DNA of 64,000 nucleotides from a virus: the IMG/VR virus record IMGVR_UViG_3300029122_000292. One strand, given 5' to 3'. Positions within the stretch are counted from its first letter, which is position 1; each line of letters begins with the position of its first letter. This document shows, piece by piece, positions 1,381 to 31,552 of this stretch. Position numbers and translations under genes: made by a program. The notes beneath the pieces were generated by a model. It worked only from the letters and a program-made list of their open reading frames with translations. It searched no databases and was not told the origin of the DNA.

Positions 1381-2580
1381 TTAAATTACTATCTTTGCTG
1401 GTTTTTCAAGCTTCACATCATACAGACAGGTCAAACCATCATCAGCAATAACAGCTACGGCCTGCTGTGGGATATCATTCTTGCGAATACCAACGGCATA
1501 ACTATCAGTGCCGCATACGCAGCCGCTTTCAATAACCTTTGTCCCGTGTACAGTTGTCATTCCGTTTGTGTGGCGATGTCCGAGGAAGACCAAATCAATC
1601 GGCTGTTTCACCATCATGGTCAAATGTTCAACGACGTTAGCAGGGGAGTCTTTATCTCCATGTGCATACATCACCAGACTATTACGAGCCTTAAATCCAC
1701 CAAACGTAGGATCGAGCTTCTCTGTTTTTACTTCAATGCCAGCCAGATTCTGTAGCCGTGCCTTCATATAAAACGGAATCAGCGCTTCGAGTTCATCACC
1801 AGCGACTTGTTCGTCCTTGTTTGGGAAAACCCGTGAATGATTGCCGCTGACCGAATACACATCAATGTGTTGGCATACTTCGTACAGTTCTGCTACAAAG
1901 TTGCTTACCAACTCTGCGGCTGTCATAACCTGTTCGATACTATTTTCATTGTTCTGAACTCGAGTGTTAATATGAATATGACCATTGATAAGATCACCAA
2001 GCAACAGCACATGAATCTTTTCGGCAGCATGTCGCTCAACAATGTTAAATACTTGAGTGACATAGCTTTCTAGCCTTGCCTTTAAAATTTCCTTATCAAA
2101 CTTGTTCCATGCAGAGTCAATGCCAGCACCTGTATGTAAGTCAGATAGGCACACAATTAAGTCATGTCCGCTGCCTTCGTACTGTACAATATTCAGGAAA
2201 TCATTCTTGTCATAGGGCACAACAGCACTTGCAATCATTTCCTTGATGGATTCAGCACGCGCAATATCACGATAAACCTTATTTGTTGCCGCCCGCTCGT
2301 CTCGCATCTTGACCTGTTCTATCTTCAGCCGCTGCAACTCGTCTGCCACAGTGCTACCGCACATATGTTCAAGCGCATAGTCGTAGCCGGCCTTCCACGA
2401 CTTATATTTCTTTCGATAAGCACATTCCCCAAAATTGGAATTTGTAGCTTCGTTCAAAACTACGGCTGCTTGATCCCATGTTAATTTTCGCTCAGAGCAC
2501 GCATTGCCAATACGCATCATGTACTCGTCAAAGGATTCGTCATCCGTCTTTCTGAATTCATTCTTTTTAATTTCGTCCAT
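1381..2580 (-). CDS. calcineurin-like metallophosphoesterase (SbcD/Mre11-type or Ser/Thr phosphatase fold) with about 130-aa N-terminal extension
   Basis: Motifs GDLINGHIH, GNHSR, GHRHT typical of the metallophosphoesterase superfamily. Confidence 0.8.
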   Translation of the reverse strand: MDEIKKNEFRKTDDESFDEYMMRIGNACSERKLTWDQAAVVLNEATNSNFGECAYRKKYKSWKAGYDYALEHMCGSTVADELQRLKIEQVKMRDERAATNKVYRDIARAESIKEMIASAVVPYDKNDFLNIVQYEGSGHDLIVCLSDLHTGAGIDSAWNKFDKEILKARLESYVTQVFNIVERHAAEKIHVLLLGDLINGHIHINTRVQNNENSIEQVMTAAELVSNFVAELYEVCQHIDVYSVSGNHSRVFPNKDEQVAGDELEALIPFYMKARLQNLAGIEVKTEKLDPTFGGFKARNSLVMYAHGDKDSPANVVEHLTMMVKQPIDLVFLGHRHTNGMTTVHGTKVIESGCVCGTDSYAVGIRKNDIPQQAVAVIADDGLTCLYDVKLEKPAKIVI

Positions 2581-2588
2581 TCTATACC

Positions 2589-2786
2589 TCAGATCTCAAA
2601 ATTAGAGTTAGTGCGATGAGTGCGATTTAGTTCGCGCAACGCCTCCTCGGCTTCAACATTGCCGGGCAGCTGGGTTAAAACAGACTTGATTTCTTCCGCA
2701 TACCACTTATGAGTAGTGCGAGTAATGTGCACATTGGGGATAATCTTCCGCAGGTAAGTTGCTTCATTCTTAGTAATTTCAATCAT
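2589..2786 (-). CDS. hypothetical protein (65 aa)
   Basis: ORF track, co-oriented and tightly spaced. Confidence 0.45.
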   Translation of the reverse strand: MIEITKNEATYLRKIIPNVHITRTTHKWYAEEIKSVLTQLPGNVEAEEALRELNRTHRTNSNFEI

Positions 2787-2874
2787 ATGTATTAAATCTC
2801 CTTTTAAATTTAAAGTAGAAAGAGTTATACCCTTTCATATATTAAGAAAATAAAGTTAATTTCGTGTATCTTCG

Positions 2875-3669
2875 TCAATTCCGTTTGATTTTCGCTAACC
2901 GTGCCTTCTCTTTGTCTGTAGCACACTCTTTGCAATACAGACTGGCATTCGGTCTCTTTGCGATATACTTTTCACCACAAACAGTACAATAGCATTCTTT
3001 AGGATCAAACAATTCTCGCGCCACTTTACTGAGGTTAAGTCGGTTGTTCTCAAGTGTTACATTGAACGTGTACGCAATTACGTCATCTTTATCAAGTGCA
3101 AAATTCGGATATGTATATAAGCAGCCAATATCGTCTGTTCCAGTTCGATAGAGTAGATGATGCACGTCAGACAGTTCGTACATGCCGCGTACCGTGTTGT
3201 ATCCATCGTCCCAGTTGGACCCACCGCGATACATGATTTCGGTCTGTTCATCAAAACATTTCCCAAACCGCTTCATTTTAAAATCAGTGTCTAATGCCAC
3301 CGTGTCACTGCCATACAATCGGCAGAAGAAGATAATTCCAAGCAAGACTCTAAGTTGTGCCCAGTTGATGTGATAGCGGCGACGAGCGTCGGTGATATAA
3401 TCTAAATCTTTCTGATATAAAACAACTTGATGTACGTCAAGTATTGGTGCGTTATTTTTGCGCCCTCGGCTGAATGTTTGAATCAGATGGCTGCGATCAT
3501 AACTGACAGACTCGGGGTTTCGCATTCGTTCATAATAAATCGTGGCACATTCAATAGGGGAGAGGCTTGTCCGCTTTAATAAATTACGCAGCATCAGGTT
3601 TGACTCGTGATAGTATTTCCAATTGTCAAGAAGCATATTTTCGTTGCAATAAAATGTCGTATAAGCCAT
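2875..3669 (-). CDS. hypothetical protein with C-terminal zinc ribbon (CxxC...CxxC)
   Basis: ORF track; C-terminus CYCTVCGEKYIAKRPNASLYCKEC. Confidence 0.6.
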   Translation of the reverse strand: MAYTTFYCNENMLLDNWKYYHESNLMLRNLLKRTSLSPIECATIYYERMRNPESVSYDRSHLIQTFSRGRKNNAPILDVHQVVLYQKDLDYITDARRRYHINWAQLRVLLGIIFFCRLYGSDTVALDTDFKMKRFGKCFDEQTEIMYRGGSNWDDGYNTVRGMYELSDVHHLLYRTGTDDIGCLYTYPNFALDKDDVIAYTFNVTLENNRLNLSKVARELFDPKECYCTVCGEKYIAKRPNASLYCKECATDKEKARLAKIKRN

Positions 3670-3678
3670 TTAACCTCC

Positions 3679-3954
3679 TTACTCGATTGGTACAATATTG
3701 CCATCAATATAACGACAAAGCTGTCCATGTTCGTTATAGTATGGAGCCATATAGCTCGCTCCTGCACCACCACTAATGTAATAATACATAACTTTTGTAT
3801 CCTTGGCGTACACGATAGAAGTATTCAAAATATGATAAAAATTGTCACTATAATTGTCGGCCCAATTACCATATTGGTCTTCTTTTGTACCGCAGCCAGT
3901 CAGCAAACATCCTATCAAACAGATGGAAATCAATATAACAAAAACCCTCTTCAT
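3679..3954 (-). CDS. putative lipoprotein (91 aa)
   Basis: N-terminal signal peptide with lipobox LLTGC (MKRVFVILISICLIGCLLTGCG). Confidence 0.6.
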   Translation of the reverse strand: MKRVFVILISICLIGCLLTGCGTKEDQYGNWADNYSDNFYHILNTSIVYAKDTKVMYYYISGGAGASYMAPYYNEHGQLCRYIDGNIVPIE

Positions 3955-4211
3955 TCTGTTTTGTCCTCCCAGCCCACAGATTCATGAGCGAATTTTTGGA
4001 TACGTTGAGCTTCGTCCCAGCTAAACATCATCTCGCCGCAATTCGCACATTTCATGGCGGTAACATTTGAGGCTTCGAGTTCCTGTCCACGGCAGTGGAA
4101 TTTATATGTCAGCCCATTTGTCAGTGTCATAGTTCCGCCGCACTTGGGGCATTCCATCTGCTGCGGGGTTTCTGCGTGCTGTGGTTTCTTTTTTTTGAAC
4201 AGATTAAACAT
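3951..4211 (-). CDS. zinc-ribbon protein (86 aa)
   Basis: CPKCGG...CANCG cysteine pairs; start overlaps upstream stop. Confidence 0.55.
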   Translation of the reverse strand: MFNLFKKKKPQHAETPQQMECPKCGGTMTLTNGLTYKFHCRGQELEASNVTAMKCANCGEMMFSWDEAQRIQKFAHESVGWEDKTE

Positions 4212-4494
4212 CGATATTCACCTCTGCTGATTCTGGATAAAATTCTGGATCACCTGAAACATTTTTGCATTGTTGGATTATCTCATTAACCTTTGTTGTA
4301 TACGCAGTTTTACAATCGGCGCAATAGAATATATTAACGTTCTGAATTTTGATTTCTTGATGAGGTGTATTTTTGTTTTTGACTTTTATATCCTTTATAA
4401 CAGCAGGATATACTCTTGTTGAATAACAAAATGGACAATAAAACATATTCTTTTCAAGTTCAGCTATATTTATAAAATATTTAAAATCATTCAT
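4204..4494 (-). CDS. zinc-finger protein (96 aa)
   Basis: CPFC...CADC motif; ORF track. Confidence 0.5.
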   Translation of the reverse strand: MNDFKYFINIAELEKNMFYCPFCYSTRVYPAVIKDIKVKNKNTPHQEIKIQNVNIFYCADCKTAYTTKVNEIIQQCKNVSGDPEFYPESAEVNIDV

Positions 4495-4495
4495 A

Positions 4496-7045
4496 TCATT
4501 TCACCCTCGCCTCATAAATTTTTGGTTCAGCTAAACTATATCGTTGACCAAGGTATTCATACTTGCCATTCGGGTCGTGAACTGGTAACTGCACTGGAAC
4601 GGGTTTGATATTTTCAACTACGCCAGCACCAGCCATGTGCCACAAGAACTTTTTAAACTTGTTAGGATATTTTTCATAGCACAGCACCACTAGAATGTTA
4701 GCCAACTCACGAACATCGGGGCAGACCAGCTTGCACTTGTTACGATACACGTTATAGATTGCTTGCCAGTTGGTTTCATAGGTCTTTGCTTCTTCTTTCG
4801 TCATGATGCCTTCAAGCTCTTTACGATAGAGTTTCCAGTTTTTAGCTTTCTTTTCGAGCTCTAACTGGTTCTTGCGGTATTTATTAAAGTCCAGAAAGAT
4901 GGCTTCGATCTCATTAAATACATCCTGATCATAGCCGATTTCAGAATCGTACATTATGTGCCAATTAAAACTGCCAGCGGGCTCTTTATGCCAACGGACA
5001 CCACGCTCCCAACGCTCGAGACTCATACAAAGTAAATTCATATTGCTGTGTGCCTTGCTAAGATTATGTAAACGTGCATAGTAGGGGCCTGCATATTTCA
5101 TGAAATAGGGCGTGCTCTTAGGACCAGTACCATATTTTTGTATATTTCTGGGAATCTTATATCCACAGCCAGTTTTAGCTCTATCGATTTCCTTTCCATT
5201 TGCGACTGACAAAAGAGAAACATATTTCAAATATTCTTGTTTTGTCTTTTCAGTCTTAGGAACTTTGTTTTGATAGACAGTGCTTAAATTTGAAATCTCG
5301 CCAATTTGACTTTTAAGACCACGAAGAGTACAAGCAAATTTATTGTCAAGGGTATCAGTTTCAGCAAGAGCAGTCTTTTTGTCCTCAAGATCCAACGTAA
5401 TAGGGATATCTGTATGTACTCCGGGAATCATGGAAGGTTCATCAATAACAAGGACGAGGTCGCCGTCAAAATCGGAACCATTGAGTCGAGGTGCATTAAT
5501 GTCATAAATCGAAGTGAAACAACAATTTACAAGTCCATGAAAATATTTTTGAGTCAATTCATTATCGACGGCGCTAACAAGCAGGTGCTCTGATCTTGAT
5601 ATATGGGGGTTTCGTTCACAAATGCGGTCTCCAAGTGCAACGCCACGACGATCAAAAGTATAAATCTCACCAGCCTTTAACGCTCCAACAACAGGGAGCC
5701 CGCCAGCCCATTCCATTAGAGCAACAAGATCTGGTACCCAAAATTTAAATGTTGCATTCATCCAGAGTTTTCCACATTTAAATCCATCACGAGTTTTATC
5801 AAGTAAGGAATGGACATACTCTTTAACGCATGGCTCGTGAATCATTTCTTGATTACGTGCTAATGCAGCAATATAATGATTCAATGGATTAACATCGTCA
5901 GCCATTAATCCAAGAAAACAATCAGTGTAAAAAATATCATCACTTGTGACTTTTTCATAAAAATCTACAGACATGTCAGCGAAGTGTTTGAAATCATCGA
6001 ATTCTAGGTCTATATTTTGCAAAATTTGATAATTGCATTTTGTGGTTAAATTTTCTCGTTCAGCGCTATAATTCCATTTCGCAATAGCAAAGCAGCTTTT
6101 TGTTTTACGAAACCATTCCAAATATCTCTCCCAGTCTTTATATGTGCCGTCTTTCTTGAAATATTTATATCCTTTATAAAGGCTGACGGTAAGAATCATA
6201 AGTGGTTCACTGCCGGGAGTTACATCATATTCTTGTCCCCAAATATCTTTGATTTTTGTAACGCCACGCTCCGCATAAAATGATTCATAATCAATCTCGT
6301 GCATGCATCCTTTGATATATGGTGCGCGAATAATACAACTGTTAATATGTTCGTCAGTATTTATTTTGCGTTCAATCTGGCGCATGATTTCTGGATGACA
6401 AATACCTGCACCATCGAAGCAGTTAATAGTGATATCGGCTTTCTTTACAGCGACATCTTTTTGTGTCCAACTTCTTTTGTTGCCAGCTTTATCAATGAAT
6501 TCTGTTGTTTTATCGTATAGATATTCAACCATTTGGTCTTTAATTGTATTCTCGTAATCATCAACGATACAAATTTTAGGTTCCCATTCCGGTAAGCAAA
6601 AAGCAGACGAAAGATTCAAACCACGATAAGCATAATATTTGCTAAGAACAGTTGGCGTTTCAGAAAAATCAAGTCCCATACTAATTCGCCTATCAAGTTC
6701 TGGTGCAATATGACGTTCAACAAAGCTGAGCATGCTTTGACGAACCATACTTGCACTGCGTTCACTAAACAAATACGTTTCTCCATTGATTTTAAATCCG
6801 TGTTTCACAAGGCGTTCAAGAGCTTTTGGTTTGTTGTATCCACCTGTAGCGTCAACAAAAACAACAAATTTCTGAAACTTATCGTCATTCATAGATATCA
6901 TACGAATTTGGCGGAACATCATGTTATCTCCCTGTAACACAGTGAAATGAATAAGTTCTTCGTTAGTTAGTTTGAAATTATAATCATGAGTAATAATATA
7001 GTTAAGAGGAAATTTTAAAACGCTATATAATGGAGGAGAAAACAT
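4496..7045 (-). CDS. 849-aa protein with NGSDFDGD motif; candidate non-canonical single-subunit RNA polymerase (YonO / two-barrel type)
   Basis: Long ORF. DxDGD, the metal-binding signature of double-psi beta-barrel RNAPs (YonO has DFDGD), found as SDFDGDLVLVID. Rest of the fold cannot be verified by eye. Confidence 0.45.
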   Translation of the reverse strand: MFSPPLYSVLKFPLNYIITHDYNFKLTNEELIHFTVLQGDNMMFRQIRMISMNDDKFQKFVVFVDATGGYNKPKALERLVKHGFKINGETYLFSERSASMVRQSMLSFVERHIAPELDRRISMGLDFSETPTVLSKYYAYRGLNLSSAFCLPEWEPKICIVDDYENTIKDQMVEYLYDKTTEFIDKAGNKRSWTQKDVAVKKADITINCFDGAGICHPEIMRQIERKINTDEHINSCIIRAPYIKGCMHEIDYESFYAERGVTKIKDIWGQEYDVTPGSEPLMILTVSLYKGYKYFKKDGTYKDWERYLEWFRKTKSCFAIAKWNYSAERENLTTKCNYQILQNIDLEFDDFKHFADMSVDFYEKVTSDDIFYTDCFLGLMADDVNPLNHYIAALARNQEMIHEPCVKEYVHSLLDKTRDGFKCGKLWMNATFKFWVPDLVALMEWAGGLPVVGALKAGEIYTFDRRGVALGDRICERNPHISRSEHLLVSAVDNELTQKYFHGLVNCCFTSIYDINAPRLNGSDFDGDLVLVIDEPSMIPGVHTDIPITLDLEDKKTALAETDTLDNKFACTLRGLKSQIGEISNLSTVYQNKVPKTEKTKQEYLKYVSLLSVANGKEIDRAKTGCGYKIPRNIQKYGTGPKSTPYFMKYAGPYYARLHNLSKAHSNMNLLCMSLERWERGVRWHKEPAGSFNWHIMYDSEIGYDQDVFNEIEAIFLDFNKYRKNQLELEKKAKNWKLYRKELEGIMTKEEAKTYETNWQAIYNVYRNKCKLVCPDVRELANILVVLCYEKYPNKFKKFLWHMAGAGVVENIKPVPVQLPVHDPNGKYEYLGQRYSLAEPKIYEARVK

Positions 7046-7061
7046 CTATATCAATTCTCCT

Positions 7062-7412
7062 TTACTTTAATTTGTTTTGGAAATCGTCGTCATCGCCAGA
7101 GTCATCATCGCTGTCATCCAACTCGCTATTGCACACAACGTAGTAACAATCAATTGCACTGCTAATATAAAATACAAGAAGGGGAGTAATAACCAGCGCC
7201 ACGAATAACACTTTTCCAATAATCTGATAGGCCAAGTAGAAGATTACCAGTGTCTCAGCAGCGTGCAGTATCCAATTAAACCAGTCTTTGCTATTGATAA
7301 AAGCAGATACCGCAATAGTCAAAGGAATATTTGTACTCATCATGCCCTGCTGGCCGTCTTCGTCTTGCAGATCGTCAGACTTCTTAGGATCTTTATCCAC
7401 TGTTGCATTCAT
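7062..7412 (-). CDS. membrane protein with acidic C-terminal tail (holin-like topology)
   Basis: Two hydrophobic segments followed by DDSDDDSGDDDD. Confidence 0.5.
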   Translation of the reverse strand: MNATVDKDPKKSDDLQDEDGQQGMMSTNIPLTIAVSAFINSKDWFNWILHAAETLVIFYLAYQIIGKVLFVALVITPLLVFYISSAIDCYYVVCNSELDDSDDDSGDDDDFQNKLK

Positions 7413-7414
7413 CC

Positions 7415-7591
7415 TTACTCTTCATCATCCCACTCGCGGCGTTGCTTGTGGGATTTTTTACTATATTTAGACGCCGGAGCTTCCTGCGCTTTTTCGATCT
7501 CCTGCATAAACTGGTTTTCAATCATGCGCTGTTTGCGGGCTGCTCTCATATATGTACTCTTAGAATTCTTATCTCGTTTGCGGTCACTCAT
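7415..7591 (-). CDS. small basic protein (about 58 aa)
   Basis: ORF 7415..7636 trimmed to the internal Met (MSDRKRDKNSK...) to avoid a 53-nt overlap. Confidence 0.4.
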   Translation of the reverse strand: MSDRKRDKNSKSTYMRAARKQRMIENQFMQEIEKAQEAPASKYSKKSHKQRREWDDEE

Positions 7592-7892
7592 CGCCGTAAT
7601 CCTCCTCACTGTCGTTATCGTATTCTTCCAACCCATATAGCTTATGATATAAATATCGGGTCAAAGAAGGGGACATAGGCGTATAGTCTTCCATCCAGAG
7701 CGTATCATACAGTGAAGCATCACCAATAACTTCCTGCCAGTCCGCGTATACTTGAATCGCGTCAATGATATTTTCTACTGTGACACTATAATTACGCACC
7801 GCATCAACTACGGCGAATCCAATATTAAAAATATCCTGTTTTGAAAATTCTTCTTCTTTCATAATAGTCCTCCTTATAGAAGCGATTTGCAC
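7584..7892 (-). CDS. hypothetical acidic protein (102 aa)
   Basis: ORF track. Confidence 0.5.
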   Translation of the reverse strand: MQIASIRRTIMKEEEFSKQDIFNIGFAVVDAVRNYSVTVENIIDAIQVYADWQEVIGDASLYDTLWMEDYTPMSPSLTRYLYHKLYGLEEYDNDSEEDYGDE

Positions 7893-8095
7893 CGAAGTGG
7901 CTTCTTTAGTTTATCTAATTGGTTGTAAATATCTGCGATTTGCTCTTCTATAGTTTTTATTCTATCCCATGCGGATTCTTCTACAGGTTGTTCTTTGGGT
8001 ATGACAATAGCTGAATTTTTTGCTAAATCGCTCGATATCCAATAACCATAAGGGTTCTCCGGATTTCCAATAAAATCTAAGTCAATAACATCCAT
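7874..8095 (-). CDS. small protein with C-terminal ...RCKSLL tail
   Basis: ORF track; AGGAG ribosome-binding site upstream; member of the CxSLL-tail set. Confidence 0.6.
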   Translation of the reverse strand: MDVIDLDFIGNPENPYGYWISSDLAKNSAIVIPKEQPVEESAWDRIKTIEEQIADIYNQLDKLKKPLRCKSLL

Positions 8096-8107
8096 TTGGC
8101 GTCTCCT

Positions 8108-8335
8108 TTACAGTAAACTGTGACATACAAATGATTTCTTTTTCTTTATTTCAATACTTACTTCAGGACACCGCTCACGAAAAAAATCATATATTGCTTT
8201 ATCTGAAATGCAATCAAGTCCAACTAACTGTCCATCCGAAATTAACAATTCATCATCATAAGACCTGATACTGTCTCCGCGAGCGACCGCATCTATCAGA
8301 AGTCTTGCTCCTTCTTCTGTCCATTCAATAATCAT
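8108..8335 (-). CDS. small protein with C-terminal ...VCHSLL tail
   Basis: ORF 8108..8350 trimmed to ATG 8335 (MIIEW...). That ATG overlaps the upstream TGA (ATGA) and is preceded by AGGAG encoded within the upstream tail codons. Confidence 0.6.
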   Translation of the reverse strand: MIIEWTEEGARLLIDAVARGDSIRSYDDELLISDGQLVGLDCISDKAIYDFFRERCPEVSIEIKKKKSFVCHSLL

Positions 8336-8544
8336 AAAAGGCTCCTGCAAATAAACGATTTCGAATTTCTAATCATATACACAATTTGATCGTATATTTC
8401 TTTATCGGTTCTTCCCCAAAATCCATAGTATTCAAAATCTGGTTTAATTTTGCTTTCATCTATATCAGGTGCAAATGGATAAAGCTTTTTATATTCTCTG
8501 ACGAAACCTTTAATCATATTGAGTTCATCAATCTCATCTCTCAT
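8332..8544 (-). CDS. small protein with C-terminal ...ICRSLL tail
   Basis: ORF track; tail codons TGC AGG AGC CTT TTA TGA carry the ribosome-binding site and start of the next gene. Confidence 0.6.
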   Translation of the reverse strand: MRDEIDELNMIKGFVREYKKLYPFAPDIDESKIKPDFEYYGFWGRTDKEIYDQIVYMIRNSKSFICRSLL

Positions 8545-8948
8545 AATAGGCTCCTACATCTGAGTGGCCGTCTACTGGTTCGAATAATATCTTCCAAGCA
8601 TTCTGGCACGACAGAAAACCCTTTAAACAAATCAAACGTATTGCGGTATATTAAATCATCTATATTTATCTGTCGCATTTTATTTTCACAGATGTATCGA
8701 ACATCAGCTTCTCCATACAGCTTAGTGAATAATTTGCAATATTCAAACGACTTGGCCAATCCAAGATCTTCATCAAAGTAGAACATAGTACACTGTGCAT
8801 TCATTTTACTATAGTCAAACTTTTCACGAAATTCATCCGGCGATTTGCATATTACGATTACTTTGCGGTGTTTTTGTACAGTGTCTAAATTATCATACCA
8901 GTTACATACTGCTTGGTAGTTCTCTGGCTTTACGAATAATACTCTCAT
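8541..8948 (-). CDS. 135-aa protein with C-terminal ...RCRSLL tail
   Basis: ORF track; ATGA-type overlaps with neighbours. Confidence 0.6.
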   Translation of the reverse strand: MRVLFVKPENYQAVCNWYDNLDTVQKHRKVIVICKSPDEFREKFDYSKMNAQCTMFYFDEDLGLAKSFEYCKLFTKLYGEADVRYICENKMRQINIDDLIYRNTFDLFKGFSVVPECLEDIIRTSRRPLRCRSLL

Positions 8949-8978
8949 TGCGGTTTCCTCTGTGGCGCTGCGGCGCTC

Positions 8979-9398
8979 TTATAACAAGCTGTGGCATACT
9001 AGATTCTTTTTATTTCGTTCATGCCATGATGCTTTGATTTTTACGACATGATCTGGGGTCCACATATAGTCAAGCTCGATAGGATGTGCTAAATCCAGAT
9101 TGCTATCCTTATTAACAAGTCGGTAATAATTCATATCATTAAGCTGATCGAATTCTTTTGCAAGCCGTGTCGCTACATCACTCATGGAATTATAGGTATA
9201 TCCGGGTCCAAACCATATCTGATGAAATATTTTTGAACTATCGTCTGCTCTTAAATACCATGCTCTAAAATCACGGTACGATTTGAATGGCATGACCCAT
9301 ACCATGTTATTATCGTTTAATGGGACGTATATCCCATTTTTGGCGTTATAATTTACAGAAGTCAGCATTGCGACTCTGGCGGTTACAGTGTAATTCAT
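8979..9398 (-). CDS. 139-aa protein with C-terminal ...VCHSLL tail
   Basis: ORF track; start ATG overlaps stop of 9395..9658. Confidence 0.6.
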   Translation of the reverse strand: MNYTVTARVAMLTSVNYNAKNGIYVPLNDNNMVWVMPFKSYRDFRAWYLRADDSSKIFHQIWFGPGYTYNSMSDVATRLAKEFDQLNDMNYYRLVNKDSNLDLAHPIELDYMWTPDHVVKIKASWHERNKKNLVCHSLL

Positions 9399-9658
9399 AG
9401 TAAACTCCTACACGTGAGAGGTTTTAAATACCATGGCGTTGGTTTTGGCTCCCACTGGTTAAACAAACGTTCAAAGTAGAACCTTTCGTTTTTCTCGTCC
9501 AAGCACAATCTCACGTCGTGATAATTCACATATTTAGCGTCGGTATCGGCGAAACATTTTAAAATAGCGGACATCTCATTGTAAGTTTCTTTGAAGTAAC
9601 TGGAACGTCCCGTTTGTACGTAATCAATCGCTTCTTTTATAATTTCTTCTCGTGTCAT
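9395..9658 (-). CDS. 87-aa protein with C-terminal ...TCRSLL tail
   Basis: ORF track; tail codons TGT AGG AGT TTA CTA TGA embed AGGAG and ATG of the downstream gene. Confidence 0.6.
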   Translation of the reverse strand: MTREEIIKEAIDYVQTGRSSYFKETYNEMSAILKCFADTDAKYVNYHDVRLCLDEKNERFYFERLFNQWEPKPTPWYLKPLTCRSLL

Positions 9659-9685
9659 ACTATTGGGTTCCTCTAACTGTTGAAT

Positions 9686-10033
9686 TTATAATAGGCTATG
9701 GCAAACAAATGATTTTTTAGATTGCATTGTATACTTGCCGACTAATTGAAGATATTTTTTGTAGATTGCCTCTGCGGCGTCTCCATCAATTGTTTCTATA
9801 TGTTGTTCAGACATTATATCGACTTTGAAACGTTCTATTGATGAATCAAGTATGGAAGCTAATTCTGAATCATAATGTATGTATCTGCGGTCTACATCGA
9901 CATGAATTACAATAGAATCTATTTTTTTATTAAGTTCTTCGCTAAGCTGTTCACAGATATCCTTACTTGCGAGTTCTAGTATTTCTTTCTCATTCTTCTT
10001 GTAATTAGTCATTCCAAAAACATCTGTTATCAT
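9686..10033 (-). CDS. 115-aa protein with C-terminal ...VCHSLL tail
   Basis: ORF track. Confidence 0.6.
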   Translation of the reverse strand: MITDVFGMTNYKKNEKEILELASKDICEQLSEELNKKIDSIVIHVDVDRRYIHYDSELASILDSSIERFKVDIMSEQHIETIDGDAAEAIYKKYLQLVGKYTMQSKKSFVCHSLL

Positions 10034-10494
10034 AGCAAACTCCTACAGGTCAGTTGCACCGTTGGTCTTCCTATGGTTGGATCGTCCGCGTCCTCGATTT
10101 CTGGGTGAAACGCAACTTCGGATGGATCATATGTAGCTATAGAGCAGGCGGCAATATTACGACCTCCTATGATATGTTGCATACATAAATCAACATCGTC
10201 GATTACAACTTGTTTTGCGTTATATCCAAAGCTGGCGAGTTGGAAATCTAAGGCGTTAAAAACTCGAATAGTCAGTCGTTTTCCCTCAGTATCAACATAG
10301 ACTTCTCGCGAATCAACTCTGTATCCTCTATATGTCCATTTCCCGCAAGATGATTCGCATAAAAATATTATTGTTTTTGTCACTAGCTCCACATTAAGAG
10401 ATGTTGGTACAATAATATCACAGTCATTTTCAATTGCGTATTTACATATTTGATAGGTGCGACCACCGCCGCGTGGGGCGAATATTTTATACAT
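10030..10494 (-). CDS. 154-aa protein with P-loop-like N-terminus (APRGGGRT) and C-terminal ...TCRSLL tail
   Basis: ORF 10030..10512 trimmed to MYKIF ATG at 10494, which has AGGAGG 6 nt upstream. Confidence 0.55.
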   Translation of the reverse strand: MYKIFAPRGGGRTYQICKYAIENDCDIIVPTSLNVELVTKTIIFLCESSCGKWTYRGYRVDSREVYVDTEGKRLTIRVFNALDFQLASFGYNAKQVVIDDVDLCMQHIIGGRNIAACSIATYDPSEVAFHPEIEDADDPTIGRPTVQLTCRSLL

Positions 10495-10511
10495 GCTATG
10501 CAACCTCCTCA

Positions 10512-11267
10512 TTACGCGGCTTCTGGTTTGCGTTCAATCAATGGGAAGATCCCGTCTTTCTTTAATAAATCATAGATGAACAGACGACCTTTTTGAGTCC
10601 AATATGTGTGTACGTGGCTATGTGAGATTCCATTAGTATCTTCAGTAATAGACGTCTTAGTTACCGTGTAGCCTTGCTCGGCGTATTCTTGATAAAGCAG
10701 CCAGATACGTCCCTGCTGATATTGTATACGACGAGATCGCAGTTCCTGATTCATCTTCTGAGCGCTCCATCCATAGTCTTTAGCAATAACACTGATAGGA
10801 AGAGCATCAGGAGTCTGAAGAACCACATCATAGTAAGATGCCTTTGGCTGCATCTCTGCAAGCTGTTGTGTTTGGATAGCTACAGTTTCCTGAAGTGCTT
10901 TTACGCGAGCATTTGCGATAAGAAGAGCACGCTGCATAATCGCATCAGGAGAGTTCCACTGTTCTTCAATTTTGATAAAATACTGGCGTGCAATCTTGCC
11001 ACGTTCATTGCGCTGAATCATTGCAATTTCTTTTGCCATCGGAATAGTAAGCTGATGATCGGTTCGAGGCTTTCCTGCGAGGCCATCAGACCTATTTTCC
11101 AAAAATGGAACATAGTCTTCATTTTCTGTAAAACCGTAATCACACATTCTCTTGAACCATGTGGTGTAATTACTGTCAACATGGAGGAAATCGTAAAGTT
11201 CTCGACCGCTTACGGTTGGGCGTTCAGGATTTTCATAATTGATAGGGATTAAGTCAGTCATATTCAT
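10512..11267 (-). CDS. phage antirepressor (AntA N-terminal domain plus KilA-C-like C-terminal domain)
   Basis: N-terminal RELYDFL...TWFKR...GFTENEDY matches the AntA family. Confidence 0.7.
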   Translation of the reverse strand: MNMTDLIPINYENPERPTVSGRELYDFLHVDSNYTTWFKRMCDYGFTENEDYVPFLENRSDGLAGKPRTDHQLTIPMAKEIAMIQRNERGKIARQYFIKIEEQWNSPDAIMQRALLIANARVKALQETVAIQTQQLAEMQPKASYYDVVLQTPDALPISVIAKDYGWSAQKMNQELRSRRIQYQQGRIWLLYQEYAEQGYTVTKTSITEDTNGISHSHVHTYWTQKGRLFIYDLLKKDGIFPLIERKPEAA

Positions 11268-11710
11268 TCTCCTACTGCATGCGCAGCACTATGTAATTTG
11301 CCAAATGGTGTAATCAAATATCGATGTAGGGCTGTGTCTTCCATCTCTTTTTGTAACTGATGGAACTTAGCCATATTATCAAGATAAGAGGGAAGCACTT
11401 TTTCTACGATCTCATAGGTCAAGGCGTATATCTGCAACCATTCTTTCATCGTCATTCCACGATGCACCATAGGACGAATCATCTGCTCAATCTGGTCGCG
11501 GATATAATCAATAGAGAAAAAATCAATTTCGTGTAGTATACTCATTCTTTCTATGTAGTTCTTGAATAACTCCACTGTCTGTTCGGCTTCTGCTTCTCGG
11601 TAGCGGTCGTACAATTCTTTTGCAAGACTATCAATGGCGTCATAGTTCCATCCGTCGGTGGGAGACCAGTAGTCCGCTACTTTCAGGCCGCTTATTTTTA
11701 TTTCTATCAT
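11264..11710 (-). CDS. hypothetical protein (about 149 aa)
   Basis: ORF 11264..11911 trimmed to an internal Met so that it does not overlap the PhoH gene by 187 nt. Confidence 0.4.
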   Translation of the reverse strand: MIEIKISGLKVADYWSPTDGWNYDAIDSLAKELYDRYREAEAEQTVELFKNYIERMSILHEIDFFSIDYIRDQIEQMIRPMVHRGMTMKEWLQIYALTYEIVEKVLPSYLDNMAKFHQLQKEMEDTALHRYLITPFGKLHSAAHAVGE

Positions 11711-11723
11711 CTTGCGCGACTCC

Positions 11724-13070
11724 TCAATCGAGTAGATCGGCCAGTTTAGCGGTTTCGCTTCGTTCGCTGATTGGCATATACACAACACCAAACCGGTGCT
11801 GACCTGTGAGACGTTCGATTGCCTTCCGAAGACCGTTATTTGACTCAAATACAACATCATCAATCTGTCGCAGATCGCCATTGAGCCACAGGGCGCTATC
11901 TTCACCAACACGTCCGATTAGTAACTGAATATGCTCCTTAGTAAGATTCTCTGCTTCGCTGCAATAAATAATAGACCGTTTATAGCTTCGACCTCGAATT
12001 GGTCCCAGATGTTCCAGCTTAACCCAACCGTCAATAATGGCACGCTCAAGAGCTACATCGCCGCCAAGAGTATCGGATAGTGGTCCTGCATATGGCATCA
12101 ATTTTTCATTCGCGGTACCGGGTAAAAAACCAATCGATCTAGAATTCTTAACTTCGACAGTGTTCCGGACCCATACGATTCTGTCGTATTTGCCTTTTTC
12201 AATCAAGTCGATAGCGTGATTAACCATCAGGAAGTCCTTGCCGCTACCATACACACCAAGAAGCAGTTTGATTGTAATGTCGTCGTTCTGAAGTAGGTCA
12301 AAGGCAAGCTTTTGCTGAATGTTGAGCGGTTTGATCTTACCTGAGTATGCGGTGTTCAGGTTCTTGTATTTAATAGGTACATAGCGCGAGCCATCCCAGC
12401 GGAGTCCAGCCGTGTTACCATCAGCGTCGGCGTTTGGAATCAATACATAACCGTTTGTTGGTGTATCAACCAAGTTCTTTTGCTCGATATCTTTGGAGTA
12501 GGCCATTGCTAATGCTTCCTCGCCACCCTGATCAATGGGCACCTCTGTCCAGCCGGTGTAGTCATTGTGAGCACCGCCGTGATCAAGAGATAGTTCACAG
12601 GGCAGTTTCATAACCCGCTGCGCAAGATTGAAGCAGCTTAGGTCACTGGTAACAAAACAGAAGGAGTCAACATCAGCGGTCGTCTTGGCTACAAGTTCAT
12701 CTGCGGCCGACTTTTCAAACACTCCTGTCCTGGCATGAATCTTCTCTGCATCTTCTTTCTTTTCAATCAGCTCATTCAGATACCATCGGGCAGCAGCCAT
12801 AATCGTTCCGTCGTTGTTGTCTTTGACTGGGACATCATTCAGGATCGAGAATAGCTGATGGTAATCAATAGATACTACTGTGTACGCTGCTGGATGTTCG
12901 GCGAGCAGGCGAGTGACGGTGCGAGCCTTAGCTTTGGTGGTTTCATCCTTCTTGCCATTAGTTTTAATATCTTCCAGCTCATAGAGAGTGATGTCAGCAA
13001 TTAGAAACTGCTGTGCAAGCAGTGTGTCGGGCGGAAGATCTAGCAGAGCAGAGGTGTCATAGAATTTCAT
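11724..13070 (-). CDS. phoH: PIN-domain / PhoH-like ATPase (PhoH2/YlaK type)
   Basis: Walker A GVYGSGKDFLM plus N-terminal PIN-like domain; domain architecture common in phages. Confidence 0.8.
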   Translation of the reverse strand: MKFYDTSALLDLPPDTLLAQQFLIADITLYELEDIKTNGKKDETTKAKARTVTRLLAEHPAAYTVVSIDYHQLFSILNDVPVKDNNDGTIMAAARWYLNELIEKKEDAEKIHARTGVFEKSAADELVAKTTADVDSFCFVTSDLSCFNLAQRVMKLPCELSLDHGGAHNDYTGWTEVPIDQGGEEALAMAYSKDIEQKNLVDTPTNGYVLIPNADADGNTAGLRWDGSRYVPIKYKNLNTAYSGKIKPLNIQQKLAFDLLQNDDITIKLLLGVYGSGKDFLMVNHAIDLIEKGKYDRIVWVRNTVEVKNSRSIGFLPGTANEKLMPYAGPLSDTLGGDVALERAIIDGWVKLEHLGPIRGRSYKRSIIYCSEAENLTKEHIQLLIGRVGEDSALWLNGDLRQIDDVVFESNNGLRKAIERLTGQHRFGVVYMPISERSETAKLADLLD

Positions 13071-13076
13071 AGTGGA

Positions 13077-14790
13077 TCATTGTCCTCCTTGATAAGGATG
13101 TATTGGATATCGTTTTACGGTTAATATGTTTAAGTACTGTTTGTAAGGGCGAAATTTTGAGCTGCCAGAACATAGCGGGCGAGAAATGCTCTCAGCAGCA
13201 CAAACGGGACTTAAATATATCATGCCTATATTATACACCAAATTTTTGTTATTTGCAAGCGAAATTGCATATATTTTCCGGGGCGATACGTTGTTTTTTA
13301 GCGATGCTGCGCAGGACAGCTGCTTAATGGAGTGTTTAACGGCGTTTATGCGTGAAATGTGCGTTTTTAGTGGCATTTTTAGCGTTTTTAGGGCAAAATT
13401 TAACGTTTTTGATCAAAAAATGAGCGAAATTTGAGCGATCAGGGAAGTGAATTTTGGTCTTTATGGGATACTAGCGGGATGAAATTACGATGATAGGCGC
13501 AATTTATAACAATATAATATGATGTAAATTTGAACGATAATACGTTGTTTACCGGGTGATGCTTCGGGACGTTTTTTGGCTACGCAGCAATGTACTGTGG
13601 TATGGCGGCGTGTGGTGTTGTAGGCGACAGCTGTGCGATCTTGATGGGTGGAAATAGGGGCTGCAGAGCGGTGGTTGACATGGCTGTTGAGATTAAAATT
13701 GGGAAGTGAGGTGCTGCACAGATGGATGTAGAAATGTTGTGAGCTACGCAAGAGCTCGGGAGATTTAGGGCGTGATGGGGAGATAGAACAACTAAGCCCT
13801 TCGGGCTTCGCGCGGGCTGACCCCGGATTTTCAACCTGCCCCCCTCTTGCCCTGTCTATCATCCATTTTTTCTAGGATTCATGCGGCTTTTCGGCTAATA
13901 TGACCTTTTGTTAAAAGGTGGGATTAGGTAGTCCCTGAACACGGAATTTATACCTATTTATATATAGGCGACTTTCCATTCCGTTTTTGTGGGCGGTGGA
14001 TTTTGGTGTTTGTGCGCTTGTTGCAAAAATAAATAGATGGTCTATACTGTAGACACTCCAAGGGGAGCGGGAAACACCGGGAACGGCACCCACACCCCGG
14101 GGAGTAGTCGCACCTTGAAAATTGCAAAGTTTGGATTTTCCCATGTGGGCGGTTTATACCGCGCCGGGTATCCGGTCAAGGTTTATGCCTTGCCATTTTC
14201 AAAACATGGGTTTCCTATCTGAACAATTAGTGCGCCCAAACCCCGATGGCCAAACATTACCGGCATAATTCCCAAGAACGTGGGAGAAGTGCGGGGGGGG
14301 GCGGTGTACCTTGAAAACTGAACAAAAGGCAGAACCTAAGATAACACCACGGGGACTGTTATGCGCAAGCATAGTTTTGTAGAAAACGCCAAGGCCAGAG
14401 CTGGCGATAATAGATACAATACCAAAGATAGTACGGTTGTTTGATGGCGTAGAACCGCCTAGAGGAGAAAAAAGCTCTTGTACCACCCCTACTATAAGCT
14501 AGAATAGCGGGCAAGGGTGCAAGCAAAAGAACACCATTAGTTCCAGATGGGCAAAGTGCGCCAAGACTAACTAACGCACGATGGACAGCACACGGGCTGT
14601 ATAAGTCCGTGCCATAATGGAACACGGGCAACAGTGCAATGGCCTAGAGAAAAGCACAACCCCAAAAGCATATAAGCTGCAAGTGTAGCTTTACATAAAA
14701 GAGACGGTCATCGGTATGCACTCTCCAAAAGCGTACCGTACCAGAGCGCTAAACAATCCGGTTTAGTGCAAGTTTTTATAAGATGAGAGG
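13077..14790. other. 1.7 kb non-coding, locally GC-rich, structured region between divergent gene blocks; candidate origin/regulatory hub and/or ncRNA locus
   Basis: Only short mutually overlapping ORFs; phased (A)GCGTTTTTA(G) repeats at 13360-13430; GNRA-type hairpins such as AGCCCTTCGGGCT; G-runs. Confidence 0.4.
14017..14044 (+). promoter_or_regulatory. sigma70-like promoter TTGCAA-N16-TATACT
   Basis: Read directly from sequence inside the non-coding region. Confidence 0.35.
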
Positions 14791-14798
14791 TAACTATT

Positions 14799-15650
14799 AT
14801 GCTGAAAGTTTATGCTGATTATGACGCCATTGCTAAGGCGGGCAAGCTGAACGAACTGACCATCCCTGAACTGGTAAAGTTCTTGAATGACCAGAAAACC
14901 GTTCTGACCGCTGAGCAGTCTCAGAATGTCACCGCCACGCTCAACAAGGCAGTCGAAAATTCCAACAAGGCCGCCTGTGATGCAAAGTGTGGTGAGTTCT
15001 GCGCTATGGAACGTGCTGAAATGTGGCGTTCCTACGCTCCTAACCCATACTATCATGGCACCAAGATTACCACCGACCCCAAGACTATGGTTCTGTCCAC
15101 CCAGGATGCAAAGATGCTTATCAAGTTCAAGACCCTCGAAAAGTATTACCAGACCCTGAACGCTGTTGAAACCAACGACAAGGGAGAGCCTATGCCCAAC
15201 AAGGCGGTTTCTCTCTGCTCCAATGGCCGTTACGAAAAGCTGATTATGCTGTTCAACGGTATGCTCTCTGAGGAGACTGCAACCGAACTCAACGCGGCCA
15301 AGATGGTTCGTAGCACTAAGGTCGAGGAGACTCTCAAAGATATGGGTTTGGATTGCTTTGTCGGTCCTGTCAACAAGGGCAAGCGTCTTGCTCAGCTCCA
15401 GGCCATTTGGAACACCATGCTCCCCGAGGAACTGTCTGCAACTTGCACCGCACTGTCTTGTGACGTCAAGTATCTCAAGATTGCAGCAAACCGCGCAAAA
15501 CAGGGCTCTGTCAATGGCATTGGCGACAAGGCCATGATTGACGAGATTGTTGTCACCATCTCTAAGGGGCTGTCTTTTGATGGCAAGGCGCGTTCCTCTA
15601 AGTACGACTTTGCAAGCAAGAGCAAGTTCTTTGCCAAGGCTGAGCAGTAA
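14799..15650 (+). CDS. hypothetical protein (283 aa), GC3-rich with strong ribosome-binding site; probably highly expressed
   Basis: RBS GAGAGGTAACTATTATG; codon usage clearly differs from neighbouring AT-rich genes. Confidence 0.7.
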   Translation: MLKVYADYDAIAKAGKLNELTIPELVKFLNDQKTVLTAEQSQNVTATLNKAVENSNKAACDAKCGEFCAMERAEMWRSYAPNPYYHGTKITTDPKTMVLSTQDAKMLIKFKTLEKYYQTLNAVETNDKGEPMPNKAVSLCSNGRYEKLIMLFNGMLSEETATELNAAKMVRSTKVEETLKDMGLDCFVGPVNKGKRLAQLQAIWNTMLPEELSATCTALSCDVKYLKIAANRAKQGSVNGIGDKAMIDEIVVTISKGLSFDGKARSSKYDFASKSKFFAKAEQ

Positions 15651-15770
15651 CACACAGTAGTCGGATACCCTTTCGAGGTCGCACCGTTCAAAGCGGCCTC
15701 TTTCCAACGCAGTATGCGTAGCGTCTTAGAGTGTGGCGCATTTTGTACACTCAGAAAAGAGGTTATCACT

Positions 15771-21714: not shown

Positions 21715-22366
21715 GAATTTCCAGCAATTTTCTACATACATAATGCGAGTCCAGATGATATTATAAACGAAGTTTTCGCAGAGGGAACTCCGGTAGTGTG
21801 AAAACGCACCGCCGGGGTTTAATGCGGCTACTGGTTCTGCAGAACTGGTACTGGTCCCAAGCCCAGAAATGCAATCGCAAGTGGCGCACATAGCGTCATG
21901 ATCGAAGCGGTTGCACAAACAGAAGGGCGCTCCACCGCACTAGTGAAATTTGATTTGATTTTGAAGCAAAGGCCACGCTGATAAATCAATGATAAAAGTA
22001 AACTAGAGGGTGTTACTTGAAGTGAGCGAAACTAAACGAAAGGAGGGTTTATAGCTTGAATTGTAAAATCAGTTACCGCTCGCTAGGAGTGGTCTTTGGT
22101 GCAAGGGTCGCGTCTTACTCCAATGAGAAAATTTTCATGGGATGGCGATACAAACTGTTTTGACGTTTAACTGAAACTTCCAAATTAAATAGAATTGACG
22201 TTGCAAGTGCTCGTTGCATCCGAGCATAAGTTCGCATCATACATACGAGTTTAGCGGTAGTCGCAAATAGGCGTAATCGACCTATAAGGTTCGCTATAAT
22301 GCGGGGCTAGGTGATTCCCGAACGGACAAGTTAAACGTATGTTAAGGATAAGAAACCGGGCGACTG

Positions 22367-26865: not shown

Positions 26866-27289
26866 TTACGCAAAGGTAGGATGAGGTATCCCGGGGCGGA
26901 GGGGCCTGCTTTCAGCCTCTGAACGAGTCGACGGAGTCAGACCCAGAACCACTGAACGCCGAGCAAGGCGATTTGGTTGCAAAACGCCCGAAACTCAACA
27001 AAGTAGCTCATCAAAGTTCGACAGAAGCTCATCAATTGAACTCAATCAACGCGAGTTGAACGGGTACTGATCAACTTCGGGACCTTTTTAAGATCAATCT
27101 TGAGAGCTTAAAAGAGCAACAACATCATTTAGATCTCGATGAATAATAATGCATAAATATGCAGAAAGGACGAATAATATACAATGATTTATGCATAGCT
27201 AATTGAGGCGCTGCCTAACGCCTATTATAAATAAGGTAGTCGACAAAAATGACACAAAAAATATATTTAAGTTCTGTTTATAATGACAA

Positions 27290-27318: not shown

Positions 27319-27363
27319 CATTTCACAAACAGGACTTAAATATACATAAGGGAGGAAAAACAA

Positions 27364-28863: not shown

Positions 28864-29112
28864 GCTATCTACTTTCCTCCATTGTCCTTGGGACTGACAG
28901 CCGGGAAAGACCGGCATATATCCGGGTGTAGCGAAGCTGGTATCGCGCCAAATTTGGGATTTGGAGATTTCGCCCGTTCAAGTCGGGTCACTCGGACCAT
29001 GGTGCAGGGTCTTTCCTTTCTACCTGTGCCTATTGTGTGTATAAAACGGTTTCCATTAGACGAAACCGCGTGGCTGAAAATGCCGAGCAGGTACGATAAT
29101 CCTGCCTTATAT

Positions 29113-29938: not shown

Positions 29939-29981
29939 TTTCGTGTACGAATATCAACAAATCAAAAAGAGGTAAATCAAA

Positions 29982-30909: not shown

Positions 30910-30914
30910 TTCAG

Positions 30915-31540: not shown

Positions 31541-31552
31541 AAGGAGGAACGA

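Follow-up and report, generated by a model that had tools for sequence, protein, structure and literature searches.

What occupies the 1.7 kb of a gut phage genome in which all genes change direction and none is found? The window that we analysed is a 64,000-nt stretch of IMGVR_UViG_3300029122_000292, to which all coordinates refer unless another locus is named, and the region under study (13077-14790) is its largest non-coding gap. As the original prediction had stated, the coding strand switches here: a PhoH-like gene on the minus strand ends the leftward set at 13070 and the gene at 14799-15650 on the plus strand opens the rightward set. The gap had also been described as free of open reading frames (ORFs). 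Indeed, only mechanical ORFs of at most 125 amino acids (aa) were found, all six frames contain stops and no ORF is conserved. What the gap does hold is a new, very large structured RNA with a boxA head like that of ribosomal RNA (rRNA) operons, placed where a common gut phage controls its two divergent gene sets. The bordering genes and the elements of the RNA, which we use throughout, are as follows.

11724-13070, minus strand: PhoH-like gene, the last leftward gene and left border of the gap

14021-14048, plus strand: promoter of the RNA, sigma-A type, TTGCAA-16-TATACT, with the start predicted at ~14054 (promoter scan)

14054-14778, plus strand: large structured non-coding RNA gene, long form, ~725 nt (fold z-score, covariation, conserved G-U pairs)

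14055-14105, plus strand: P1, a 5' hairpin with an invariant GGAAAC, variable in length and boxB-like in position (helices 1-3, four pairs compensatory)

14109-14129, plus strand: boxA-like element i, CGCACCTTGAAAATTGCAAAG, right after P1 and nearly invariant in 21 representatives

14130-14305, plus strand: core domains A and B, with multi-helix junctions, UUUAU(A) loops and an invariant UCCCA-AGAAC-UGGGA hairpin (helices 6-16)

14306-14329, plus strand: boxA-like element ii, GTACCTTGAAAACTGAACAAAAGG, unpaired in the consensus fold and 190 nt after element i

14330-14470, plus strand: hairpins C-E of the core and its conserved 3' end, UUGAUGG-hairpin-CCUAGAGGAGAAA (helices 17-21)

14471-14745, plus strand: 3' extension, long form only (covariation-supported fold)

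14746-14778, plus strand: intrinsic-terminator-like hairpin (9 bp) with a U-run, ending 20 nt 5' of the gene 1 start codon (scan)

14799-15650, plus strand: gene 1, the first rightward gene, 283 aa, of no known family, always 3' of the large RNA

We aligned the 1.8 kb that lie 5' of the 283-aa gene in 33 relatives. Conservation was low and gappy over 13130-13760 and moderate over 13760-14050; it reached 84-98% identity over 14091-14330 and stayed high to ~14480. For comparison, the DNA of the PhoH gene is about 66-73% identical in distant clades. Both the high conservation and the first helix start at the predicted transcription start, ~14054. In the related locus L070 the whole intergenic region is 91% identical, compared with 64% for the adjacent protein, and in L071-L073, where this protein is 68% identical, 13764-14793 aligns at ~75%.

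The conserved sequence folds. Compared with shuffles, 14040-14800 had a fold z-score of -4.0 on the plus strand and of -2.6 on the other strand. Using 21 representatives that share 56-97% identity, we obtained a consensus fold of the core (14054-14470, 417 nt) with 108 pairs, in which 95.9% of the cells were paired. Compensatory double changes were found in 32 of the 108 pairs, giving a covariation score of 0.221 that was reached by none of 500 shuffles. In slid controls, with the 3' partners shifted by 1-3 columns, 39-49% of the cells were paired, at most 10 pairs had double changes and the score was at most 0.062. The 3' part (14458-14801) was folded from 11 long-form sequences and behaved in the same way, with 72 pairs, 99.6% of them paired, and 10 compensatory pairs; its slid controls were 29-40% paired, with at most one compensatory pair. 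Altogether, the two consensus folds comprise ~180 base pairs with covariation support from more than 50 sequence variants of gut viromes and metagenomes. The RNA must be read from the plus strand, since many invariant G-U pairs would become A-C mismatches on the opposite strand. Compensatory substitutions beyond the controls and no conserved reading frame leave us in little doubt that 14054-14778 is a structured RNA gene. The original prediction had named two functions for the gap, a structured non-coding RNA that forms the long leader of the 14799 gene and a replication origin; the former is strongly supported, the latter found no positive support. GNRA-capped hairpins are present as described (for example GCAA at 14365-14368), and the predicted G8-G9 runs come down to a single G9 at 14293-14301, the only run of seven or more G in the gap, whose length differs among relatives.

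The RNA is modular at its periphery. Domain A is exchanged for a different fold in L070, L101 and L088, a 28-nt hairpin is inserted in one clade, and the GCAA-capped hairpin is replaced by a longer one. The 3' extension is likewise exchanged: a shorter, unrelated module takes its place in short-form relatives, and L108 is a hybrid. In this sense the RNA is a mosaic, in which subdomains (domain A and the 3' modules) are swapped between otherwise near-identical RNAs (L070 5240-6012; L101; L088; L108).

We could not assign the RNA to a described family. With Rfam 15 at the gathering threshold, all matches of the window lie outside 13077-14790, and a permissive scan of 12900-15000 (E <= 10) returned just three chance matches to eukaryotic small nucleolar RNA and microRNA models. 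The Rfam scan proposed in the original prediction hence yielded no family for the large RNA at either stringency, and in the relatives L071, L021, L074, L088 and L118 there was no match within the RNA. Known classes (ROOL, GOLLD, OLE, HEARO, raiA, group I/II introns, RNase P, 6S, transfer-messenger RNA (tmRNA), T-box, riboswitches and rRNA) all stayed below their thresholds. The window holds no second copy of the RNA. A scan of IMG/VR for a wider family with an 18-mer from the boxA region gave chance matches only, which the RNA profile rejected. Neither Rfam nor the literature that we searched yielded an earlier description; the RNA could still be one of the unnamed candidates from large microbiome screens.

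The predicted ends of the RNA are marked by a promoter and a terminator. The sigma-70-like promoter of the original prediction corresponds to TTGCAA-16-TATACT at 14021-14048, and its -35 and -10 are retained in diverged relatives. Promoter-like sites in the gap as a whole are not above chance (6 versus 3.3 +/- 2.1 expected). The promoter at 14021-14048 persists through sequence turnover as TATTAT, TATTGT or a TGn-extended -10 (TGnTATTAT), always at the same distance from CACTCC. At the other end, the stem-loop 14746-14769 is followed by AAGUUUUU (AAG and U5), the 3-nt spacer being slightly atypical. The stem (helix 13) was 100% paired with compensatory changes in two pairs, features of an intrinsic terminator. 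Between the terminator and gene 1 there is no sigma-A -35/-10 pair, either by inspection of 14650-14798 or in the scan of the plus strand. By the distance between the conserved start CACTCCAA and the gene 1 start codon, the relatives fall into two size classes, a short form of 542-574 nt and a long form of 715-757 nt, to which the phage of the window belongs. The terminator is missing in most short-form relatives and in MT835676, a more distant phage, so that the RNA should be a plain 5' leader of gene 1 there.

What might such a transcript do? A clue comes from elements i and ii, which resemble each other in a repeat search. Both look like the boxA regions of Gram-positive rRNA operons, and this likeness was tested. 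Published sequences agreed with it. A mycoplasma primer set that includes GTTCTTTGAAAACTGAAT presumably targets the 16S-23S spacer. The sequence itself is one of four primers in a nested mycoplasma-detection PCR (PMC3019172). Element i is also close to TGTTCTTTGAAAATTGCACAG, which flanks the Clostridium sporogenes 16S gene (bioRxiv 10.1101/401489). We then used three Firmicutes rRNA (rrn) operons, those of Listeria, Priestia and C. difficile, taken from plasmid or chromid records. The Listeria leader has the order promoter, hairpin, GACCTTTGAAAACTGAACAAAG; the Priestia leader contains GAACTTTGAAAACTGAACAAAG; and C. difficile has AGCACTTTGAAAACTGCA in the 16S-23S spacer and GAACTTTGAAAATTAAACAG in the leader. 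The 16-mer TTGAAAACTGAACAAA of element ii recurs unchanged in the Listeria and Priestia leaders (E = 0.002); this is the only significant match of the RNA to the three operons, and outside boxA no homology to these operons was detected. Element i, over GCACCTTGAAAATTGCA, is identical at 15 of 17 positions to GCACTTTGAAAACTGCA of the C. difficile 16S-23S spacer, and at 16 of 17 in L026 and L030.

A position weight matrix (PWM; maximum 23.2 bits) was built from six rrn boxA sites, which may not be those of the host lineage. In the scan of the 64 kb, element ii ranked first with 19.6 bits; 200 shuffled versions gave top scores of 14.4 on average and never more than 19.8. Furthermore, CYTTGAAAAYTR matches exactly twice in the window, at elements i and ii, both on the plus strand. 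The order of promoter (14021-14048), P1 (14055-14105) and boxA (14109-14129) matches the Listeria rrn leader, so that a sequence match to Firmicutes rrn boxA is combined with a leader position after a predicted promoter and beside a boxB-type hairpin. MT835676 retains the upstream block, the promoter, P1 and AGCACTTTGAAAATT, followed by a different leader of ~500 nt and an unrelated first gene. P1 and AGCACTTTGAAAATT are thus kept where the body of the RNA is not, which makes the hairpin-boxA head the most persistent part. A 37-nt boxA query against GenBank phages returned chance-level matches only, inside coding genes.

In lambda nut sites and rrn leaders, NusB:NusE (S10) binds single-stranded BoxA and nucleates a termination-resistant polymerase (PMC2800207), and a boxA located 5' of non-coding CRISPR arrays averts Rho termination (PMC7665894). 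By analogy, the best reading in our view is an rRNA-operon-like Nus-factor antitermination leader that is fused to a large RNA and heads the early operon (probability roughly 0.5). For the antitermination mechanism itself, a reasoned proposal, we would put the odds at even or just under. Host sigma-A RNA polymerase would initiate at ~14054 from the promoter at 14021-14048. The nascent RNA would form P1 first, then expose the boxA-like element at 14109-14129 and later that at 14306-14329. BoxA would load host NusB-S10 and partner Nus factors onto the polymerase, and the long untranslated transcript might in this way be shielded from Rho. A fraction of the polymerases would run on beyond the 14746-14778 terminator and transcribe gene 1 along with the long rightward operon, while those halting there would release a free RNA of ~725 nt. 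Given the size and the conservation of the fold, a further role of the RNA seems implied, one that its sequence does not name.

Several points weigh against this antitermination leader. A 12-nt boxA cannot account for a conserved fold of 725 nt. Since most short forms lack the terminator, read-through control cannot be what the RNA does in all relatives. The following 20 kb show no enrichment of terminator-like sites (14 versus 17.6 expected). The start of the RNA, the use of the terminator and read-through are all deduced from sequence. With respect to the elements themselves, element i ranked fourth in the PWM scan (13.7 bits), within the shuffled range and not significant alone. Element ii is not invariant, being TTGACAAC in short-form clades. 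Both elements read CCTTG in place of the CTTTG of rrn boxA, which occurs only in L026, L030 and L118. Finally, the CCUU of element i pairs with GAGG (14462-14465) in the predicted fold, in a helix for which covariation speaks neither way; element i is partly paired in helices 4-6, of which helices 4-5 show no covariation.

The strongest alternative is one that we regard as a possible but clearly less likely explanation: the RNA could be a stand-alone, trans-acting "ornate" RNA of the GOLLD/ROOL kind, serving as scaffold, multimer or decoy for host proteins or defence systems, and the boxA-like motifs would merely secure its full synthesis or be coincidental. A length of ~725 nt, ~180 supported pairs, GNRA loops and modular peripheral domains fit this proposal well, as do the predicted promoter and terminator of the long form and the swapping of subdomains around a constant core (domain A in L070 and L101, the 3' module in L108). 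A location in phages is shared with GOLLD and ROOL (PMC12286853, PMC5737381). Yet the RNA is similar to no large-RNA model of Rfam, nor does it lie close to tRNAs, where GOLLD and ROOL are often found. It always lies directly 5' of the first rightward gene, and in the short forms and in MT835676, without a terminator, it is physically the leader of gene 1, a position that is at odds with a stand-alone product.

A bolder extension of the antitermination leader, which we find doubtful, is that the RNA acts as a phage "pseudo-pre-rRNA", imitating the leader and spacer signals of rRNA operons to capture Nus factors, S10 and S4. If this were true, early transcription of the phage could become proof against Rho and terminators, and the co-transcriptional folding of a new ornate RNA particle could be chaperoned. 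Factors could also be titrated from host rrn operons, amounting to host shut-off, and the rightward arm, with the ribozyme motifs that follow its genes, would be one long protected precursor, cut by RNA elements like an rRNA operon.

A replication origin, the other function originally predicted, concerns mainly the left 1 kb of the gap. This part holds promoters, a divergent motif pair, lineage-specific T-tracts and conserved non-coding blocks, and no genes. Its features are:

13125-13144, minus strand: 20-nt motif ACAAAC-N3-ACTTAAATATA with 1 mismatch, facing the PhoH-like gene ~55 nt 5' of its start codon

13200-13219, plus strand: exact copy of the motif ACAAAC-N3-ACTTAAATATA, forming a divergent inverted pair with 13125-13144

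13230-13258, minus strand: predicted leftward sigma-A-type promoter of the PhoH operon, TTGCAA-17-TATAAT (promoter scan)

13361-13418, no strand: phased T-tract/A-tract array of GCGTTTTTAG-type units, 9-12 and 21 bp apart (repeat search)

13533-13580, plus strand: conserved element AACGATAATACGTTGTTTACCGG, followed by a hairpin (13552-13567) and a T-run, terminator-like

13590-13765, plus strand: G-rich, C-depleted tract (G ~0.40, C ~0.12; composition)

13766-14020, no strand: conserved non-coding block (identity 0.62-0.86) with a palindrome (13895-13927) and GGAATTTATACCTATTTATATATAGGCGA (13944-13972)

We consider an origin in this region, particularly in 13300-13800, unlikely. According to this proposal the T-tracts would be bent DNA or iterons, and the G-rich tract would give rise to an R-loop or primer RNA. 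The phased repeats described between 13360 and 13430 are indeed there (GCGTTTTTA at 13361, GCATTTTTA at 13373, GCGTTTTTA at 13382 and ACGTTTTTG at 13403). Their phasing of ~10.5 bp would suit an origin, as would the location in the largest non-coding gap, and Tandem Repeats Finder reported a period of 21 with 2.4 copies. Three of the five window-wide matches to GCRTTTTTA cluster within 30 nt. The array is lineage-specific, though, with gaps at this place in 43-69% of the relatives; a scan for the unit, with a pattern mis-specified for the window's own repeats, found 1-2 loosely similar copies in relatives. No iteron family rises above chance two-copy matches, 13077-14790 contains no DnaA box at up to one mismatch, and no replication-initiator gene was identified beside the region. 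Curved DNA, an UP-like element or binding sites are candidate roles of the array, none of them established.

The cumulative GC skew, which had been suggested as a check, does have its minimum at ~12-13 kb of the window, where gene orientation also diverges. The switch of the skew coincides with that of the gene strand and is consequently not independent evidence for an origin. Positive skew already begins in non-coding DNA at ~12.9 kb. The claim that GC content is clearly above the flanks did not stand: the gap has 45.4%, compared with 45.0% in the 2 kb to the left and 48.5% in the 2 kb to the right, at the 70th percentile of equal-sized windows. Its composition is heterogeneous, with 37% in the AT-rich stretch 13077-13560, 48% in 13561-14050 and 49% in the RNA. 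In 53 of 53 distinct variants, the most distant relatives included, the tract that corresponds to 13590-13765 (110-190 nt) is G-rich and C-depleted with a GC skew of 0.38-0.73, despite poor sequence conservation. We keep the origin as a low-probability alternative, since such a tract could in principle support R-loop priming.

The motif copy noted in the original prediction is ACTTAAATATA at 13209-13219, the end of a 20-nt motif with seven copies in the window, most of them 5-25 nt 5' of a ribosome-binding site (RBS) and oriented with the gene. Besides 13125-13144 (-) and 13200-13219 (+), these are 27262-27281 (-), 27325-27344 (+), 35113-35132 (+), 60397-60416 (+) and 62098-62117 (+), so that there are two divergent inverted pairs, 13125/13200 and 27262/27325. 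The exact copy at 13200-13219 is retained in the closest relatives only, and L007, L026 and L028 have another inverted motif in its place. The 20-nt motif is probably a candidate phage-specific promoter, perhaps for the YonO-like polymerase of the phage, or an operator. The -10 context of the leftward promoter, GGTGTATAATA, is retained in all clades, even in otherwise unalignable ones. The element at 13533-13580 is present in every relative, the most distant included, and partly repeats 13281-13310 as a direct repeat. In the window, CGATA(AT)ACGTTGTTT...TTTTTTGGC occurs twice, at 13281-13310 and at 13533-13590, the second copy with the hairpin 13552-13567 inserted. The block 13766-14020 is common even to MT835676. 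No consensus RNA fold of 13766-14050 was found on either strand except for one palindrome, and the block is probably regulatory DNA.

Less likely still than an origin, in our estimate, is a cis-acting sensor, that is, a riboswitch- or T-box-like attenuator that responds to a ligand, tRNA or protein and toggles a terminator and antiterminator for gene 1. The terminator does directly precede the RBS of gene 1, and neither inspection nor the scan shows a promoter-like -35/-10 pair in the interval. Moreover, two CCUU motifs can each pair with the conserved AGAGGAG at 14461-14467, which suggests alternative conformations. But no riboswitch or T-box model matches, inspection revealed no conserved sequence complementary to the terminator arm, the terminator is missing altogether in most short forms, and the RNA is 3-7 times longer than known sensors.

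That the gap is a degraded, frameshifted or stop-reassigned gene, or an assembly artefact, is next to impossible: the mechanical ORFs of up to 125 aa, its only support, shift frame and position across the 33 relatives, and the 125-aa translations match nothing in PHROGs or Pfam; TAA, TAG and TGA each occur in all six frames of 13077-14790, so that no stop-codon reassignment rescues a gene; substitutions track base pairing and not codon periodicity; and the recurrence of the gap in over 60 independent assemblies excludes an artefactual frameshift, including the frameshifted large gene considered in the original prediction.

In our best reading, 13077-14790 controls early expression in both directions, in a Firmicutes phage of the human gut that has a genome of ~150 kb and encodes a YonO-type RNA polymerase. 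The phage genome measures ~145-150 kb and recurs in human-gut viromes and metagenomes; there are 34 related loci in IMG/VR, and the RNA is also found on 33 further human-gut contigs. The leftward genes span 1381-13070 and include an exonuclease, the polymerase, an anti-repressor and the PhoH-like ATPase. Two further features of the neighbourhood matter here:

4496-7045, minus strand: YonO/RdRP-type single-chain RNA polymerase (Pfam RdRP, 2.8e-14)

15661-15713, plus strand: RAGATH-5-like RNA between genes 1 and 2 (41.9 bits versus a gathering threshold of 50; local E = 6.4e-6)

The polymerase is 39.5% identical to the annotated one of Thomasclavelia phage TR-TP1 and related to SPbeta YonO. The host should be a Firmicute, because the closest annotated relatives of this polymerase are in Thomasclavelia, Enterocloster and SPbeta phages. 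Scans of the GTDB species genomes with protein profiles and with 20-mers gave no host or prophage match. Two RNA-bearing contigs, L113 (VOFB01000498.1, 574,840 bp) and L100 (ODYE01000005.1, 285,494 bp), far exceed a phage of ~150 kb. They may be integrated prophages or chimeric assemblies; if they are prophages, the flanking DNA would name the host.

The 283-aa product of gene 1 matched nothing in Pfam, PHROG or PADLOC, nor did tblastn of GenBank phages find a match. Its family is a tight set of 30 clusters without names or domains, its AlphaFold model is uninformative (pLDDT 46.7), and it has no homology to gene 1 of MT835676. On the rightward arm, from 14799 on, numerous small uncharacterised genes are accompanied by a twister-P5 ribozyme, a tmRNA, ten tRNAs, a retron-type reverse transcriptase and a nicotinamide phosphoribosyltransferase; judging from these genes, the arm is early or accessory rather than structural. 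At the position of the RAGATH-5-like RNA, relatives have RAGATH-5 above threshold or, in L071, a Pistol ribozyme (L071 6856-6926; L074 6863-6915; L118 4534-4586). The arm looks like a long precursor that is processed by RNA elements, and such an arrangement with ribozyme motifs fits a need for processive transcription.

Some genes and RNAs of this arm deserve mention in their own right. The type-P5 twister ribozyme (21777-21866, plus strand, 47.1 bits) lies inside a gene-free gap of 730 nt and is also found in L071 and L074. The tmRNA (29113-29499) has the tag ANYNSYRCAA, and tmRNA and tRNA genes occupy 28922-33653 and 62746-63942 on the plus strand; eight of the ten tRNAs were called by ARAGORN and two by Rfam (32996-33064, and 32554-32633 in Rfam's call). 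The retron-type reverse transcriptase (39621-40856, plus strand; PADLOC RT_II-A 2e-37, Pfam RVT_1) is preceded by an ORF-free gap of 294 nt (39327-39620) just 5' of it, a possible msr/msd. Beside it lie a ThiF/E1-like protein (38652-39326) and a tyrosine integrase (41818-42633, plus strand). The nicotinamide phosphoribosyltransferase is encoded at 48696-50174 on the plus strand (PHROG 448, 1.7e-162).

To our knowledge, only a handful of bacterial or phage RNA classes exceed 500 nt, and the function of GOLLD and ROOL is still open. The RNA described here offers a functional handle: it has a fixed position at the head of an early operon, its promoter and terminator signals are clear, it occurs naturally in a long and a short form, and its two copies of boxA, a host signal that is well understood, can be mutated. 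Should boxA prove functional, we would have, by the searched literature, the first Firmicutes gut phage to borrow rRNA antitermination, and large phage RNAs would be connected with the processivity of transcription and with those gene clusters of gut phages that are rich in ribozymes. At present, annotation pipelines report nothing for these 1.7 kb in the genomes of phages that occur widely in human-gut metagenomes.

How does this locus compare with known systems? SPbeta (L119, NC_001884) is likewise a Firmicutes phage with a YonO-type polymerase, and its yonN-yonK gene-free gap of 1.68 kb (3154-4834, minus strand) contains DUF3800-VIII (47.5 bits) and a sub-threshold skipping-rope match in Rfam. 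Forrest et al. (2017) noted "an unannotated non-coding RNA" in this gap (PMC5467207). Both phages thus have a gap of ~1.7 kb with a structured RNA 5' of a long operon. The SPbeta gap, however, lies at the start of the late structural operon and is transcribed by YonO, while here a sigma-A-like promoter precedes an accessory or early operon; the layouts are analogous, the RNAs unrelated.

GOLLD and ROOL (RF01998, RF03087) are large "ornate" RNAs associated with phages and prophages (PMC5737381, PMC12286853). They share with our RNA the 500-800 nt class, many helices, a modular periphery, the phage context and a function that is unknown. In contrast to them, the RNA studied here matches neither model at E <= 10, is fixed as a gene leader with boxA copies and is narrowly distributed, in one human-gut phage group. 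BoxA-protected CRISPR arrays are similar in that a boxA stands at the front of a long non-coding transcript on which Rho would otherwise act (Stringer et al. 2020, PMC7665894). They differ in being repeat-spacer arrays, whereas the phage RNA is one large fold followed by protein genes, and in their hosts, since Firmicutes, to which our host belongs, were not reported by that screen (PMC7665894).

The put RNAs of HK022 are cis-acting antitermination RNAs of a phage, located just downstream of its early promoters; compared with them and with lambda nut, the RNA is ~10 times larger. With lambda nut it shares the start of a long early operon, a hairpin and a boxA, and a first gene that comes next as N does after nutL (PMC2800207). 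No N-like protein was identified, the 283-aa product being without detectable family, and the order is hairpin then boxA. This last difference from lambda is the order of rrn leaders.

The rrn antitermination complex consists of NusB-S10, NusA, NusG, SuhB and S4. Our element differs from an rrn boxB-boxA leader in being phage-encoded, in that its boxA copies are separated and followed by RNA other than rRNA (no match to the small or large subunit), and in that most phage variants have CCTTGAAAA and not CTTTGAAAA; Nus binding is proposed here by analogy only. In common with such leaders, a sigma-A promoter comes first, a hairpin and then a boxA-type sequence follow within ~55 nt, and a second boxA lies farther downstream, where rrn operons have one in the 16S-23S spacer. 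The transcript, too, is long and highly structured and is not translated, and the phage elements are near-identical to the boxA regions of Firmicutes rrn operons.

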